Below, one piece after another: positions 304 through 36,880 of a stretch of DNA of 37,193 bases. The notes beneath the pieces are model-generated. The model worked only from the letters and a program-made list of their open reading frames with translations. It did not search any database and had not been told where the DNA came from. Position 1 is the stretch's first letter. Each line of letters begins with the position of its first letter. The position numbers and the translations under genes are program-made. This stretch comes from a virus (taxonomy: Duplodnaviria > Heunggongvirae > Uroviricota > Caudoviricetes). The DNA is taken from positions 1 through 37,193 of IMG/VR virus record IMGVR_UViG_2534681832_000017. The stretch is one strand, 5' to 3'.

Positions 304-768
304 ATGCTCGCGCTTATGCGTAAGTCTCTGGGTTCTCTTCCTGCTGTTCCCCTGAGTGTTGAAAATCCCATTGAATTAACGCTGACCGACTGGGTACGTG
401 ATGGTAGTGCTCCACAGGGATTTCAAATGGGGGATGCGGCAGAACTTAAGGCAGTGCTTGAGGATGGCGGTATTGCCCGAGTGAAAAAGCAGGATTTGGG
501 AAGCGATGAAATTTCCACACACCTGGAAGCTGGCAAGCTCGTCACTAAGTTGGCACTCGACTGGCAGAACCGCATTAAATTTACACTGGACCATAACTTC
601 AGCCTTACCAGCGTCAAATTTGCGGATGAATTGCTTGAGCAGAACTCTGATATTGATAGTGAAGATGTTGCGCAGCGACTGGACGCAGATTTCTTCCTGT
701 TGACCAGTGAAATTTCGTGCCTGGTTGATGCTCTGGTAAATGCCCTTGGCGGAGAGGCTAAGCAGTGA
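304..768 (+). CDS. RdgC-like recombination-associated protein, C-terminal half only (possible truncated hrdC-type gene)
   Basis: ORF track; recalled RdgC C-terminal signature ([25 protein letters not shown]...LGGEA); in-frame similarity continues upstream only to a stop at 226-228, so the N-terminal half is missing; GTGA overlap with next gene. Confidence 0.45.
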
Positions 769-3700
769 AAGAGCTGTGCTATGGATCTGTTTGCAGTGGA
801 ATTGAAGCCGCGAGTATTGCCTGGGAACCGTTGGGTATGCGTCCGGCGTGGTTTGCTGAAATCGAGCCTTTTCCATCGGCCGTTCTTGCGCTCCGCTGGC
901 CCCATGTTGCCAACCTTGGCGACATGAAAAAACTTGCCAAAAAAGTCTTGGCTGGGGAAATCGAATCCCCTGACGTGCTCGTCGGGGGAACACCATGTTT
1001 TACCGCGGGGCATATGGTTCTTTGTAAAAATGGCTATAAACCAATAGAAAATGTTTGCCCTGGTGATTACGTAGTCAGTCATCTCGGGCGGTTACAACAA
1101 GTAAAAAGAGTTGGTTCAAAAATAGCTAATACGGGGTTACTTAATGCCGTTGGGCAGCCTTTAGGTATAAGAACAACCAATGACCATCCCTTCCTGGCTG
1201 TTCGGTGGAAAGCCCAAAACACCCGGAAAAATGGCACATATTTTAAGAGAGAGTTGTTGTCTGAACCGGAATGGCGAGCAGCATGTGATATGCCGGGATA
1301 TCAATGGTGCGCTCTAACTAATTTCAATATTGCATTTCCAGATATTTGTTCTCGGTTCTTGTCTGAAGAACAGGCTATGTATCTTGCGGGCGCTTATGTT
1401 GGCGATGGATATATTAGGAGATGGAGAGGTAAATCTAAGAAGGCGGTTGTTTTTGGCATAAATTGCCAGAAATTGAGAAAGTTTCATTGCCGCATACCAG
1501 AAAACATATTTTCCGTGGCAAGCGAAATCCGAGGGAGCATCAAAGTAACCTTGAATGATACGTGTTATGCCAATTGGCTTAATGAACATTTTGGCGAGTT
1601 AAGCCATGCTAAGCGTATCCCTGCATGGGTGATGTCGCATCCATTGCGTCATGTGTTTTTACAAGGCTATCTTGATACTGATGGGACACCAAGTGGTAAA
1701 GCGGGATTTAGAATTAATAGTGTTAGTTCTGCGCTTGCTTGGGGCGTTGCGGGGTTGTCACAGACTTGTGGTTATGTTTCTTCGGTCAGCTTTATTGAAG
1801 TTGAGCCCAAAAAAGTGATCGAGGATCGCGTGGTAAATCAACGGAATTATTATCAGGTAACAATCTGCCCGCAGAAATTGTCACGTAAATCAAGATTGGC
1901 TCATGGAATGCTTTTACGAACAGTCAAAGAGTTTAAATCGGTAGGCCTAGATACTGTATACAACATAGAAGTCGAAGGTGATCATTCCTATATCCTCAAT
2001 GGTGCGGTGGTCCATAACTGTCAGGCATTCAGTATCGCGGGATTACGTGGTGGGCTTGATGATGAGCGTGGCGCGCTAACTTTAAAGTATGTGGAGCTTG
2101 CAAATGCAATTGACGACAAACGGGCTGAGTCATTTCTCAAACCAGCCGTTATCGTCTGGGAAAATGTCCCAGGAGTCTTGTCATCGGCAGATAACGCCTT
2201 CGGATGTTTCCTTGCCGGATTGGCTGGAGAAGATGTGCCATTTGAACCAGGTGATCGACCTGAATCAGGAAAAAGCAACGCGTTCTGGCGGTGGGATGGC
2301 AAAACCGGTTGCCATGTTCCAAAGTGGCCGCAGTGTGGTTGTATTTATGGACCGCAGCGAAAAGTGGCTTGGAGAATCCTTGATGCCCAATACTTCGGAG
2401 TGGCACAACGACGCCGACGCGTGTTTGTTGTCGCAAGTGCTCGAACAGATCTCGATCCCGCAACGGTACTTTTTGAGTTCGAAGGCGTGCGCCGGAATAT
2501 TGCGCCGAGCAGAGGCGAGGGGAAGGAAACTACCAGATATACTTCAAACATCGCTATCAGAACTTGCGATGATACAAACATAATTGCCATGGCACATGGG
2601 CAAGGAGGGGCTGAGATAAAAACCGATAATTCGGCACCAACTTTGACATGTAACCATGAAGCACCAATTGTATTGCTCGGCGACGGTAGAATGCGCCGTC
2701 TTACCCCTGTCGAATGTGAAAGGCTGCAAGGTTTTCCTGATTGGCATACGTTGATCCCTACGGAAAAGCGTAAAAAAGTTAATTCAGATGAACTGGCATA
2801 TCTGCACAATCACTATCCAGATTTAAGCGAAGAAGAGGCCGCAATGCTTGCAGCTGACGGACCGCGTTACAAAGCGATCGGCAATAGTATGGCAATACCA
2901 GTAATGCGCTGGATTGGCGATCGGATTACTAAGGCCGTATGTCGGCAGAAAGAAGGAAGTGAAACAAAAGAGCGAAAAGTTAAACCAGCGGCAGAATTCG
3001 AACGGTCCATATTCAAATGGGCTGGTGGAAAATTTGGTGTTCTGGAACAAATCTTTCGCTATTTGCCAGAAGGGAAGCGCCTGATTGAACCTTTCGTTGG
3101 TGGCGGAGCTGTCTTCATGAATGCCGGATACCAGGAAAATCTGCTAAATGATGTGAATGCTGACCTGATTAACTTTTACAAGACTCTGCAACGCGAGGCG
3201 CATTCACTTATCACTCTGGCACATCGTTTCTTCCAGGACTACAACACACAGGAAGGATACCTGGCAGTACGGAATGCGTTTAACAAACAAGTCTATGATG
3301 ATTTACATCGCGCAGCGGCGTTTTTGTTCCTGAACCGACATTGTTTTAACGGATTGACGCGTTACAACCAGGCCGGTGAGTTCAATGTCGGTTATGGGAA
3401 GTATAAAACTCCGTATTTCCCATTACAGGAGATGGAAGCCTTCCTCGGTGCGGAAGGGCGGTCTGAGTTTGTATGCGGTGATTTTGCAGCGGTGATTGAA
3501 GCTGCCGGAGAAGGAGATGTCATCTTTTGCGATCCGCCGTATGAACCGCTTCCAAATACAGAGGGATTCACGAACTATTCCGGTCATGACTTTAAGTTTG
3601 AAGAGCAAAAACGCCTGGTGTCTCTGTTGACGGATGCTCATCGTCGAGGTGCAAAGGTTCTCATTACTAACAGTGGCGCGCCAAACATCAGAGAGCTTTA

Positions 3701-3806
3701 TCATGACAGTGGCTTCAGAGTGGAACCTCTTTTTGCCAGACGTTCTGTGTCTTGTAAGGGGGACACTCGAGGTGTAGCTCATGACGTTTTTGGTATATTG
3801 CTCTAA
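765..3806 (+). CDS. dmt: bifunctional DNA methyltransferase: N-terminal C5-cytosine MTase (interrupted by intein) fused to C-terminal Dam-type N6-adenine MTase
   Basis: GTG start coupled to upstream gene; C5 motifs: GGTP|CQAFSIAG (PCQ, split by insert), [28 protein letters not shown]; Dam motifs: [24 protein letters not shown]. Confidence 0.85.
996..2018 (+). mobile_element. intein (341 codons) with LAGLIDADG homing-endonuclease domain, inserted at catalytic Cys of the C5-MTase PCQ motif
   Basis: Insert begins CFTAGHMV (Hint block A-like), contains TTNDHPF (block B-like), [12 protein letters not shown] (1380-1415) and [11 protein letters not shown] (1656-1688), ends NGAVVHN followed by Cys+1 (2019); excision restores [12 protein letters not shown]. 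Confidence 0.8.
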
Positions 3807-3813
3807 TAAATTT
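3797..3813 (+). promoter_or_regulatory. C1-type operator (exact 17/17 match to ATTGCTCTAATAAATTT), overlaps dmt stop codon
   Basis: Exact match to the asymmetric 17-bp P1 C1 operator consensus as I recall it. Confidence 0.6.
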
Positions 3814-3987
3814 ATTAGTGTAATATCGCCTCAATGAATCGTGATTTATAGAGCGATTTAGCTGTTAGCCGCGACAGGCGCGGCGGTAAGCATGGCTGGG
3901 CCTAGTCCTCCCAGACAAACCACCGAGTTGCCAGGTTGACCATGCGCCTAAGTGGCAACGCCGAAGTGCGTTACGAGCTTCCAGTTT

Positions 3988-4013
3988 GCCCATCTTCGGG
4001 TGGGCGTTTTTTT
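3988..4013 (+). terminator. rho-independent terminator
   Basis: Stem GCCCATC/GGTGGGC with TTCG tetraloop followed by T7 run. Confidence 0.6.
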
Positions 4014-4479
4014 CAGGGTTTTCGTCATGGTTAGCGACTTTGCGGCGGTTTAGAAACTGACCATTAAAGTAAATGCAAACGATGATCTGATGATGGTAGC
4101 GGCCTAAGAAGCCAGATGCCACGGGGTATGAGTCGTCCCCCGTCAAAAAAATCGACCGCAGAGTGTCCCCGTCTGTGTATTAGGGAACGGGGAGGCACAA
4201 CAGGTAAGGGCGCTGGTGTGATTAACCAGATGAACGAGAAGGGGCCATCTGTTGGTCAGCGTCCTTTCCTGTTGCGTTTTCTTTTCAGCGTAACAGCGGT
4301 GCTTAACAGCACTTTGGGTACAGTTCCACGAATTTACGGGTATATCCCGTCATGCTGAAGGCGCTAATCACGCTGGAAGCCAGGGTTGTGCATCCCCTGT
4401 TACCGAATTGCAGCTAGGGCGCGGTGCGCCGAAAAGCATACGGAGGTGGAAGCCCTCGCCGGAGACGTACCCGGCAAGT

Positions 4480-4555
4480 GATGGTGTAGCTCAGCGGTTA
4501 GAGCAGTTGGCTGTTAACCAACTGGTCGGTAGTTCGAATCCACCCACCATCGCCA
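4480..4555 (+). tRNA. tRNA-Asn (anticodon GUU)
   Basis: Cloverleaf: acceptor GATGGTG/CACCATC, D-arm GCTC-AGCGGTTA-GAGC, anticodon loop CTGTTAA, T-loop TTCGAAT, discriminator G, encoded CCA; one A-C mismatch in T-stem. Confidence 0.8.
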
Positions 4556-4560
4556 CTTTA

Positions 4561-4647
4561 GGGGAGTTAGTCCGTAGGGGTAGCGGGGTAGACTGTAAAT
4601 CTACTGTCATTGCGACTCGGGTGGTTCGACTCCATCACTCCCCACCA
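4561..4647 (+). tRNA. tRNA-Tyr-like (anticodon GUA), type II with long variable arm; non-canonical D-arm
   Basis: Acceptor GGGGAGT/ACTCCCC 7 bp, anticodon arm GTAGA-CTGTAAA-TCTAC, variable arm with GTC/GAC hairpin, T-arm GGTGG-TTCGACT-CCATC, encoded CCA; D-stem only forms with a 3-4 nt linker after the acceptor stem. Confidence 0.55.
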
Positions 4648-4651
4648 CATT

Positions 4652-4727
4652 GCCGATTTAGCTCAGTTGGTAGAGCAGTCGCTTTGTAAGCGAATGGTCA
4701 GCGGTTCGATCCCGTTAATCGGCACCA
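4652..4727 (+). tRNA. tRNA-Thr (anticodon UGU)
   Basis: Acceptor GCCGATT/AATCGGC, D-arm GCTC-AGTTGGTA-GAGC, anticodon loop TTTGTAA, T-loop TTCGATC, encoded CCA; resembles E. coli tRNA-Thr(UGU) from memory. Confidence 0.85.
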
Positions 4728-6313: not shown

Positions 6314-6389
6314 GGCCCCTTAGCTCAGTGGTTAGAGCTGGCGACTCATAATCGCACGGTCACCGGTTCAAGTCCGGTAGGGGCCACCA
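6314..6389 (+). tRNA. tRNA-Ile2-like (anticodon CAU; body resembles E. coli ileX rather than tRNA-Met)
   Basis: Acceptor GGCCCCT/AGGGGCC, D-arm GCTC-AGTGGTTA-GAGC, anticodon loop CTCATAA, T-loop TTCAAGT, encoded CCA. Confidence 0.75.
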
Positions 6390-35549: not shown

Positions 35550-35566
35550 TTTGCTCTAATAAATTG
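35550..35566 (+). promoter_or_regulatory. C1-type operator (15/17) upstream of c4 module 3
   Basis: TTTGCTCTAATAAATTG directly after pacB stop. Confidence 0.5.
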
Positions 35567-35748
35567 TGTTTTTTAACTACCGATGTTACATTGAGCCTGA
35601 CCTCTTGCGCCTTGAGGCATTTTCGGTTTATGCTTATCAGGCACCTCATTAAAACGGGTGCCGGGATTGGCCTCCCGCTTAAGTCTAAGGCGATACAGAC
35701 GCCGCTCGCGTCTTTTTTTGTATCGGCGTACACGCACACCTCTACAAT

Positions 35749-35824
35749 GGTGGGCTGTATGGGGCTACCTTCGGGTAGGCTGGTTACCTTGGACGCCAGT
35801 AAGGCCAACTCCGTACAGTCCACC
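35749..35824 (+). ncRNA. c4-type antisense RNA, module 3 (divergent specificity)
   Basis: Same scaffold as c4 module 1 (GGTGGG...TTCG stem-loop...GCCAGT...GTCCACC) with compensated stem CTACC/GGTAG; b-prime CCTTGGA (35787-35793), a-prime AGGCCAA (35802-35808). Confidence 0.5.
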
Positions 35825-35884
35825 GCCAGCAAGATTGGTCTCTTCTGCGGTGGTTACATACCAACGTCTAAGGAGGCTGCCAAT

Positions 35885-36566: not shown

Positions 36567-36753
36567 GTATTTTTAAGTCGCGAATGCTATCTTTTCGCAT
36601 CATATTGACCTTTTAATCGTTCAGGCTTATAGTTCCGCCGTCGTAGCAAATTCTGCGACCGGGTTTAGCAGCCTGAATGTTAGTGCGGACAACCGCAGAT
36701 ATCCGATATTGCGGTATTTTTGTGTCCGTAAAACCGCGTTACGCCCAAATTAT

Positions 36754-36830
36754 GGTGGGGCGTGATGGGGAGGCTTCGGCCTGCTGGTTTCACTAACGCC
36801 AGTCTGCTAACCCCGTCACGTCCTGCCACC
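36754..36830 (+). ncRNA. c4: c4-type antisense repressor RNA, module 2 (altered specificity)
   Basis: 77 nt, identical scaffold to module 1 except b-prime CACTAAC (36791-36797) and a-prime CTGCTAA (36804-36810), matched by targets TTAGCAG / GTTAGTG upstream and in the icd leader. Confidence 0.65.
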
Positions 36831-36880
36831 TGTTTAGCAGCGGGTAGCAGGTTGTTAAACCTGTTAGTGAGGCCGTAACT

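Follow-up and report, generated by a model that had tools for sequence, protein, structure and literature searches.

The stretch of DNA analysed here (the window) covers all 37,193 nucleotides of the IMG/VR virus record IMGVR_UViG_2534681832_000017 and represents a P1-like (Punavirus) element of a lineage other than that of P1. ARAGORN identified four tRNA genes in the window, all on the plus strand, namely tRNA-Asn(GUU) at 4480–4555, tRNA-Tyr(gta) at 4561–4647, tRNA-Thr(UGU) at 4652–4727, and a tRNA with a CAU anticodon at 6314–6389. The Asn and Thr genes, which flank the Tyr gene upstream and downstream, respectively, were also recovered with Rfam, and the CAU gene occupies the position of P1 trnI, whose tRNA-Ile2 reads AUA after lysidine modification. 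Downstream of the cluster lie plp/upl-like ORFs, a TerB-like tciA, a DUF3927 tciB, the CAU tRNA, and ban.

The tRNA-Tyr gene comprises 87 nt including an encoded CCA, and every feature listed for it in the original prediction was found, i.e. a perfect acceptor stem, a GUA anticodon arm, a long variable arm, a T arm, and the CCA end. The 5′ strand of the 7-bp acceptor stem, GGGGAGU (4561–4567), pairs with ACUCCCC (4637–4643), followed by A73 (4644) and CCA (4645–4647). The anticodon arm, GUAGA-CUGUAAA-UCUAC (4588–4604), has a 5-bp stem and a 7-nt loop that presents GUA (4595–4597) between U33 and A37, as in class II tRNA-Tyr, and this loop is that of E. coli tyrT/tyrV. The long, class II variable arm, U-GUC-AUUGC-GAC-UCG (4605–4619), forms a 3-bp stem with a 5-nt loop, and together with the G at 4620 it makes up a 16-nt sequence, UGUCAUUGCGACUCGG, that is identical in the tRNA-Tyr of T5 and T6. 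The T arm, GGUGG-UUCGACU-CCAUC (4620–4636), was delimited by Infernal and by covariation and has a 5-bp stem with a loop of the UUCRANY type. Each of the 24 helix pairs is standard, with no disrupted pair in the sequence or in the minimum-free-energy fold, and U8, A14, G18, G19, A21, and the T-loop are kept. The set of identity elements for tyrosyl-tRNA synthetase (TyrRS) is complete, consisting of G4561–C4643 (G1–C72), A73, and the long variable arm; A73 and G1–C72 are established bacterial Tyr identity elements (PMC9976931). The modification contexts A36-A37-A38 and U33-G34-U35 are likewise conserved. Positions 4561–4647 are thus an intact tRNA-Tyr(GUA) gene of a phage type that is common in E. 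coli phages. The suppressor function entertained in the original prediction, or a recoding function more generally, could appeal to the unusual structure of this tRNA and to nothing further, and it is refuted by the anticodon, which is GUA, within a loop of the standard 7 nt, both in the window and in every relative examined; its probability is negligible.

The unusual structure concerns the D arm and the connector that precedes it. Four nucleotides, UAGU (4568–4571), lie between the acceptor and D stems, comprising U8, A9, and two extra nucleotides that Infernal placed as a 'gu' insertion, whereas a review of non-canonical tRNAs, in which phages are unmentioned, gives two connector bases as the rule (PMC7609411). 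The D arm itself (4572–4586) is a 4-bp stem, CCGU (4572–4575) with GCGG (4583–4586), whose last pair is U–G, closed by a 7-nt loop, AGGGGUA (4576–4582), that bears the equivalents of A14, G18, and G19. The ViennaRNA minimum-free-energy fold is a cloverleaf with the same 4-nt connector and the same D arm. The 'CCG/CGG' stem with a 4-nt linker that had been proposed from the sequence was therefore correct, except that both Infernal and ViennaRNA extend it by one pair. With 4 bp and 7 nt, the arm also departs from the E. coli tyrT type, which has a 3-bp D stem and a loop of ~11 nt. Two alternative folds were rejected. In the register with a canonical 2-nt connector, 56.8% of D-stem cells pair, against 100% in the shifted stem, and the fold drawn by ARAGORN, with a forced 2-nt spacer and a 2-bp GU/GC D stem, is an artefact of that program's model.

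The odd connector is accompanied by a lower covariance score. Rfam/Infernal matched RF00005 to 4561–4644 over model positions 1–71 of 71 with 41.9 bits, above the gathering score of 29 (E-value of 1e-5 in the whole window and 3.5e-8 locally), while the neighbouring Asn, Thr, and CAU tRNAs reached 66–70 bits, some 25 bits more. Both properties could be read as signs of a decaying pseudo-tRNA, i.e. a horizontally acquired remnant whose function has been lost, and some GenBank records do call relatives 'tRNA-OTHER' or 'tRNA-Pseudo-GTA'. Against this reading, the tRNAY gene of T5 (locus L132, 7341–7428), which is functional, gave no RF00005 match at the gathering threshold. Since this functional copy scores even worse, the modest score of the window gene reflects its architecture and not damage. 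ARAGORN, for its part, reported nothing at the locus of Enterococcus phage KEN16 (L133, about 151–232), where GenBank has a tRNA-Tyr annotation. Neither a low covariance score nor a 'wrong' D arm, then, makes this gene a pseudogene; together they are typical of a tRNA-Tyr architecture that is widespread but poorly served by generic tRNA models.

How widespread the type is among phages was apparent from BLAST with the 87 nt, which returned 1530 phage records, 1359 of them at 80% query cover or more. Identity was 93% in rV5-like phages, 90–92% in T4-like phages, 85–86% in Klebsiella Jiaodavirus, ~80% in T5-like phages, and 78% in FelixO1-like and Enterococcus phages. Copies with the same architecture in T4-, T5-, rV5-, and FelixO1-like phages are 76–93% identical, and pairwise comparison with the window gene gave 93% for the rV5-like phage LL12, 90% for T6, 86% for T5, and 74% for E. 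coli tyrT. In particular, the tRNA-Tyr of T6 (MH550421; Tequatrovirus) is identical at 78 of 87 positions and shares the 4-nt connector, the CCGU/GCGG D stem, and the entire variable arm, but has UC in place of GU in the connector and U26 in place of G26. Its setting differs as well, for it adjoins the segB homing endonuclease gene in a virulent phage, whereas the window copy lies in a C1-controlled operon of a temperate phage-plasmid. The T5 tRNAY(GUA) (NC_005859, T5t22; 76/88 identical) agrees with the window gene in the length of its connector (4 nt, UAUU), in having a shifted D stem of 4 bp, and in the whole variable arm, and differs in its compensated D stem (CUGU/GCAG), an 8-nt D loop, and a G1–U72 pair. 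The host genes tyrT/tyrV resemble the window gene in being class II, with the same anticodon loop, G1–C72, A73, and the variable stem GUC/GAC, and the total length from position 8 to position 26 is equal in both. They are nevertheless identical at only 64 of 87 positions. Their connector has the canonical 2 nt, their D stem (CCC/GGG) has 3 bp and a loop of 11 nt, their variable loop is limited to 3 nt (AUC, as against AUUGC in the window), and their T-loop reads UUCGAAU. As a separate observation, the rV5-like phage LL12 carries a 99-nt tRNA-like gene (L004, 992–1090) annotated 'tRNA-Lys, isotype prediction inconsistent', which ARAGORN reports as tRNA-??? with a 4-base anticodon (atcc).

Further tRNA-Tyr genes were collected from IMG/VR with a search pattern that left the D arm untouched, yielding 120 loci, 30 of them in this clade, and pairs were counted on a MAFFT alignment of 22 diverse relatives. 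Three sequences (L011, L101, and phage Stitch) were excluded from the counts because MAFFT put their fifth connector nucleotide at the 5′ end. When the cloverleaf is drawn with the shifted D stem, the 22 sequences pair in 99.1% of cells and 15 of the 24 pairs show double-sided changes, and none of 500 shuffles attained any of these measures; when the 3′ partners were slid by 1–3 columns as a control, just 42–54% of cells paired. Double compensatory changes occur in six of the seven acceptor pairs, and the variable stem covaries. The shifted D stem itself is paired in 22/22 sequences, with a compensatory C–G to U–A change in T5 and in L038, and the excluded phage Stitch provides a second compensatory D-stem variant, UCGU/GCGA, behind a 5-nt connector. 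The common layout of the relatives is an acceptor stem, UA, two extra nucleotides (three in some), and CCGU-loop-GCGG, where UA is invariant across the family and the extra 2–3 nt are variable. By these comparisons, the odd D arm is a conserved family trait and no mark of decay, so the suggestion in the original prediction that it might betray a decaying pseudo-tRNA is not supported for this copy.

The variable part of the connector may have a partner. Position 4571 (column 11), the second extra nucleotide, shares most mutual information, 0.73 bit, with position 26 (4587, column 28), and the 22 sequences combine the two as A/G (11), C/U (4), U/A (3), U/G (2), A/U (1), and U/U (1). This could mean that the two nucleotides stack as a pair that closes the D stem, or it could reflect the phylogeny of the family; with 22 sequences and a statistic that ignores kinship, the covariation is suggestive only. 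The second extra nucleotide of the connector may stack opposite position 26.

The same architecture extends to bacterial chromosomes. Scanning one genome per bacterial species with a D-arm and anticodon pattern gave 87 loci, mostly in Lachnospiraceae and including the complete chromosomes of [Clostridium] asparagiforme and Blautia producta, and in most of them a perfect 7-bp acceptor stem can be placed with a 4-nt connector. The chromosomal tRNA-Tyr genes of [Clostridium] asparagiforme DSM 15981, Blautia producta DSM 2950, and Tahibacter have the same succession of acceptor stem, UA-NN, and CCGU...GCGG, but they differ in their T-loop (UUCAAGU) and in their acceptor and variable sequences, and they are genes of cells, not of mobile elements. 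The gene of the Enterocloster group stands beside tRNA-Ser(GCU) amid TetR, MatE, phosphoesterase, and hydrolase genes, which is an ordinary chromosomal context, and Infernal scored it at 33.9 bits, only by mis-registering the acceptor stem. An architecture restricted to phages was accordingly rejected.

Conservation with covariation in several phage families and in bacterial chromosomes speaks against a pseudo-tRNA and places the window gene in a distinct structural subclass of bacterial class II tRNA-Tyr, an assignment that forms part of our best explanation. The subclass is characterised by a 4–5-nt connector between acceptor and D stem, a 4-bp D stem ending in U–G, and a short, class I-like D loop. 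The expanded connector, as the trait that defines a coherent tRNA-Tyr subclass, is the only mildly novel residue of this analysis, and our search of the searchable literature found it nowhere described. We propose only tentatively, and regard as rather doubtful, that the combination of a long connector, a class I-like D arm, and a long variable arm constitutes a hitherto unrecognised tRNA-Tyr subclass present in many virulent phages, some P1-like plasmids, and Lachnospiraceae chromosomes. If the subclass is real, its altered core geometry could change recognition by tRNA-targeting nucleases or by modification enzymes.

Within P1-like elements, the gene itself is already known and annotated in close relatives. 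Over 401 bp around it, the window shares 99.5% identity with the P1-like phage vB_EcoM-Ro157c2YLVW (Punavirus; MH160767/NC_050153), in which the same 87 nt occur at 100% identity, annotated as tRNA-Tyr(gta), in the Asn-Tyr-Thr slot downstream of dmt; what differs is the distance from tRNA-Thr to tRNA(CAT), which is ~345 nt shorter in the window. The original prediction had found a Tyr-like gene unexpected in this place. Its premise was right, since in both P1 and P7 just 2 nt separate Asn from Thr and leave no room for a Tyr gene, but the identical sequence already bears a tRNA-Tyr annotation in P1 relatives, and by the standard that the prediction itself had set, the claim of an unexpected gene fails. 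Copies that are 95–100% identical were found in 269 of 5426 complete E. coli genomes in RefSeq, every one of them on a plasmid, and BLAST with the element detected no chromosomal copy in these 5426 genomes. Among the matches listed, which come from P1-like E. coli plasmids, PGAP had labelled 39 of 40 copies as tRNA-Tyr. In PLSDB, 750 plasmids match the region, and ~115 of these, or about one in seven, have the gene. The searchable literature held no relevant account of phage Ro157c2YLVW or of the tRNAs in the P1 ban operon.

This distribution bears on the question of decay from both sides. Because it is absent from P1 and P7 and present in only ~115 of the 750 matching plasmids, the tRNA-Tyr gene must be dispensable, and its absence from P1 and P7 could be cited in favour of a pseudo-tRNA. 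So could the copy on the E. coli P1-like plasmid NZ_LR882992 (L141, 121–207), in which a G3-to-A substitution creates an A3–C70 mismatch in the acceptor stem and a G12-to-U substitution breaks a D-stem pair (U12–C23), and where PGAP made no annotation. That copy seems to be an allele of this gene that is in decay, and its two stem-breaking substitutions suggest relaxed selection in some lineages. The window copy, by contrast, has all its helices intact, and it is matched at 99% identity or more by no fewer than 80 E. coli records, 12 of which, among the matches listed, reach 100%. A remnant without function is consequently a very improbable description of the gene at 4561–4647.

Comparison with P1 further revealed that the Tyr gene is not the only part of the cluster that differs. 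The 720 nt upstream of tRNA-Asn (3760–4479) are identical to P1 at 715 of 721 positions, whereas tRNA-Asn is identical to P1 trnA at only 68/76 positions (and to N4-like Asn at 71/76) and tRNA-Thr to P1 trnT at 68/76. A simple insertion of Tyr into a P1 backbone is unsupported by these values; since Asn and Thr diverge from P1 while the upstream flank is nearly identical, the whole tRNA module is a different allele. N4-like phages (vB_EcoP_3HA13, L009 601–850, and other Enquatrovirus) have an Asn-Ser(UGA)-Thr cluster with the same 5-nt and 4-nt spacers, and this cluster is 75.7% identical overall to the Asn-Tyr-Thr cluster of the window. Judging by such alignments, the middle position of the cluster behaves like an exchangeable cassette slot, and the cluster as a whole is a recombining cassette array with tRNA genes common to virulent phages. 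The ban-operon tRNA cluster of P1-like phage-plasmids is a mosaic that shares tRNA genes with virulent coliphages. On another E. coli P1-like plasmid, NZ_CP076307 (L140, 382–458), the tRNA-Asn slot holds a tRNA in which an anticodon arm with UCU (Arg) is combined with acceptor and T arms of the Asn kind, and the same genes for Tyr and Thr come next; this tRNA is either a chimeric/recombinant tRNA or an anticodon-arm swap.

Upstream of the cluster, the bivalent C1 operator Oban was identified at 3797–3824 by sites that fit the C1 operator consensus either exactly or with two mismatches. It overlaps the P1ban/P2ban promoters, as annotated in P1, and lies ~650 nt upstream of the tRNA cluster, and in the P7 record the tRNAs are said to be under the control of Op(ban). 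Since Oban and the ban promoters are conserved and the P7 record ties Op(ban) to the tRNAs, tRNA-Tyr would be expressed upon derepression, i.e. during lytic growth. A strong terminator-like hairpin with a T-run (3984–4006, plus strand) stands between the ban promoters and the tRNAs, also in P1, where it sits at the end of a region annotated 'dicF-like'. How much transcription gets to the tRNAs is thereby in question.

Taken together, the gene is very probably a functional phage-type tRNA-Tyr(GUA) of a distinct subclass that supplies Tyr-tRNA in lytic growth from the C1-controlled ban operon. Its integrity, the conservation and covariation of its family, its homology to experimentally tested tRNAs, and the upstream operator are all observed here; from them we infer, for this element, expression, charging, and a counter-defence benefit. 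According to this proposal, the Asn, Tyr, and Thr tRNAs would be co-transcribed from the C1-repressed ban-operon promoters on entry into lytic growth, the transcript would be processed, and tRNA-Tyr would be charged by host TyrRS and would read UAU and UAC. As its anticodon is the same as that of the host tRNA, the benefit would be extra supply and not a new decoding capacity. By analogy with the tested homologues, the most probable benefit is that Tyr-tRNA is kept available when host tRNA-Tyr is depleted or cleaved, possibly buffering the element against tRNA-Tyr-cleaving defences such as Septu and Retron-Eco7 PtuAB.

The homologues in question are the tRNA-Tyr of T5, SP15, and T6, to which the window gene is related by 86–90% identity and the same architecture. 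The T5 tRNAY(GUA) with a replaced anticodon is recorded as an 'effective amber suppressor' (GenBank record NC_005859). The T6 tRNA-Tyr has been seen by northern blot, and its over-expression, or amplification of its gene driven by segB, rescues T6 from Septu, a defence that cuts tRNA-Tyr in the variable arm and cleaves the T6 tRNA-Tyr at C48, within a GUC|A site (PMC13096335). Similarly, the T5/SP15 tRNA-Tyr rescues phage from Retron-Eco7 PtuAB, and mutations in its anticodon or stems abolish the rescue (PMC11555353). The functional tRNA that the original prediction had considered as one option is supported by intact helices, family covariation, Tyr identity elements, and homologues in T5 and T6 that work experimentally. 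The GUC|A site, which Septu cleaves in the tRNA-Tyr of both E. coli and T6, is also present in the window tRNA-Tyr. Because the T6 tRNA-Tyr is itself cleaved by Septu at this site, any protection would be by dosage, not by resistance.

The variable arm of the window gene, being that of T6, would also suit an uncharged decoy or sponge that soaks up tRNA-Tyr-directed nucleases instead of serving as a translational adaptor, which had been another option in the original prediction. The altered anticodon that abolished rescue by the SP15 tRNA (PMC11555353) implies that decoding function is needed for rescue, the T5 tRNAY works as a suppressor (GenBank record), and the TyrRS identity elements and modification contexts kept in the window gene would be needless for a mere decoy. 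We therefore disfavour the decoy and hold it to be improbable.

A translational role for tRNA-Tyr does not by itself require a link to defence. The gene could act as a general translation booster or serve codon-usage adaptation, with faster translation of phage genes in late infection, and the other tRNAs of the cluster fit such a role. In the long ORFs of the window, ATA and ACA amount to 12.2 and 12.4 per 1000 codons, respectively, which exceeds the E. coli averages, and this enrichment fits the Ile2-like tRNA(CAU) and tRNA-Thr(UGU). Tyr codons, at 29.9 per 1000 in the same ORFs, are not elevated, being roughly at the E. coli average, and a codon-usage demand for Tyr was rejected on this ground. 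With average use of Tyr codons and an anticodon identical to that of the host, which leaves no codon-specific gap, codon-specific compensation is unlikely. P1 and P7, moreover, are without the gene although their gene complement is essentially the same. Boosting translation is the classical view of phage tRNAs (PMC13096335), but as an account of tRNA-Tyr in this element we consider it unlikely, and a supply of Tyr-tRNA that matters when the host pool is depleted or cleaved remains the preferred reading. The kind of tRNA-Tyr that in T5 and T6 blunts tRNA-Tyr-cleaving defences is present in roughly one in seven matching PLSDB plasmids, an incremental extension of published work.

PADLOC and Pfam searches of the ORFs between tRNA-Thr and tRNA(CAT), and of several other window ORFs, detected no tRNA-targeting defence gene beside the cluster; they gave only matches to the Dmt methyltransferase, TerB, DUF3927, and DnaB. 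A linked tRNA-targeting defence or self-immunity module is hence unsupported by these searches.

Apart from the tRNA cluster, two other features of the window deserve mention. Rfam located three C4 antisense RNA genes (9280–9365, 35743–35830, and 36748–36833), two c4-a1b1 target elements (9159–9211 and 36627–36679), and an isrK-like sRNA (35641–35718). From P1, only one c4, that of immI, is known. In the window, C4 copies two and three lie just after a pacB-like ORF, with C1-operator-like sites at 35550 and 36550, which suggests that the extra copies are duplicated or additional immunity (antirepressor-control) modules. The Dmt methyltransferase ORF (765–3806, plus strand) encodes 1013 aa, compared with 754 aa in P1 (a gene of 2265 nt), and shows Hint_2 and LAGLIDADG_3 matches at approximately aa 77–361, before its C5 and N6 methylase domains. 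It seems that Dmt has acquired an intein that contains a homing endonuclease.
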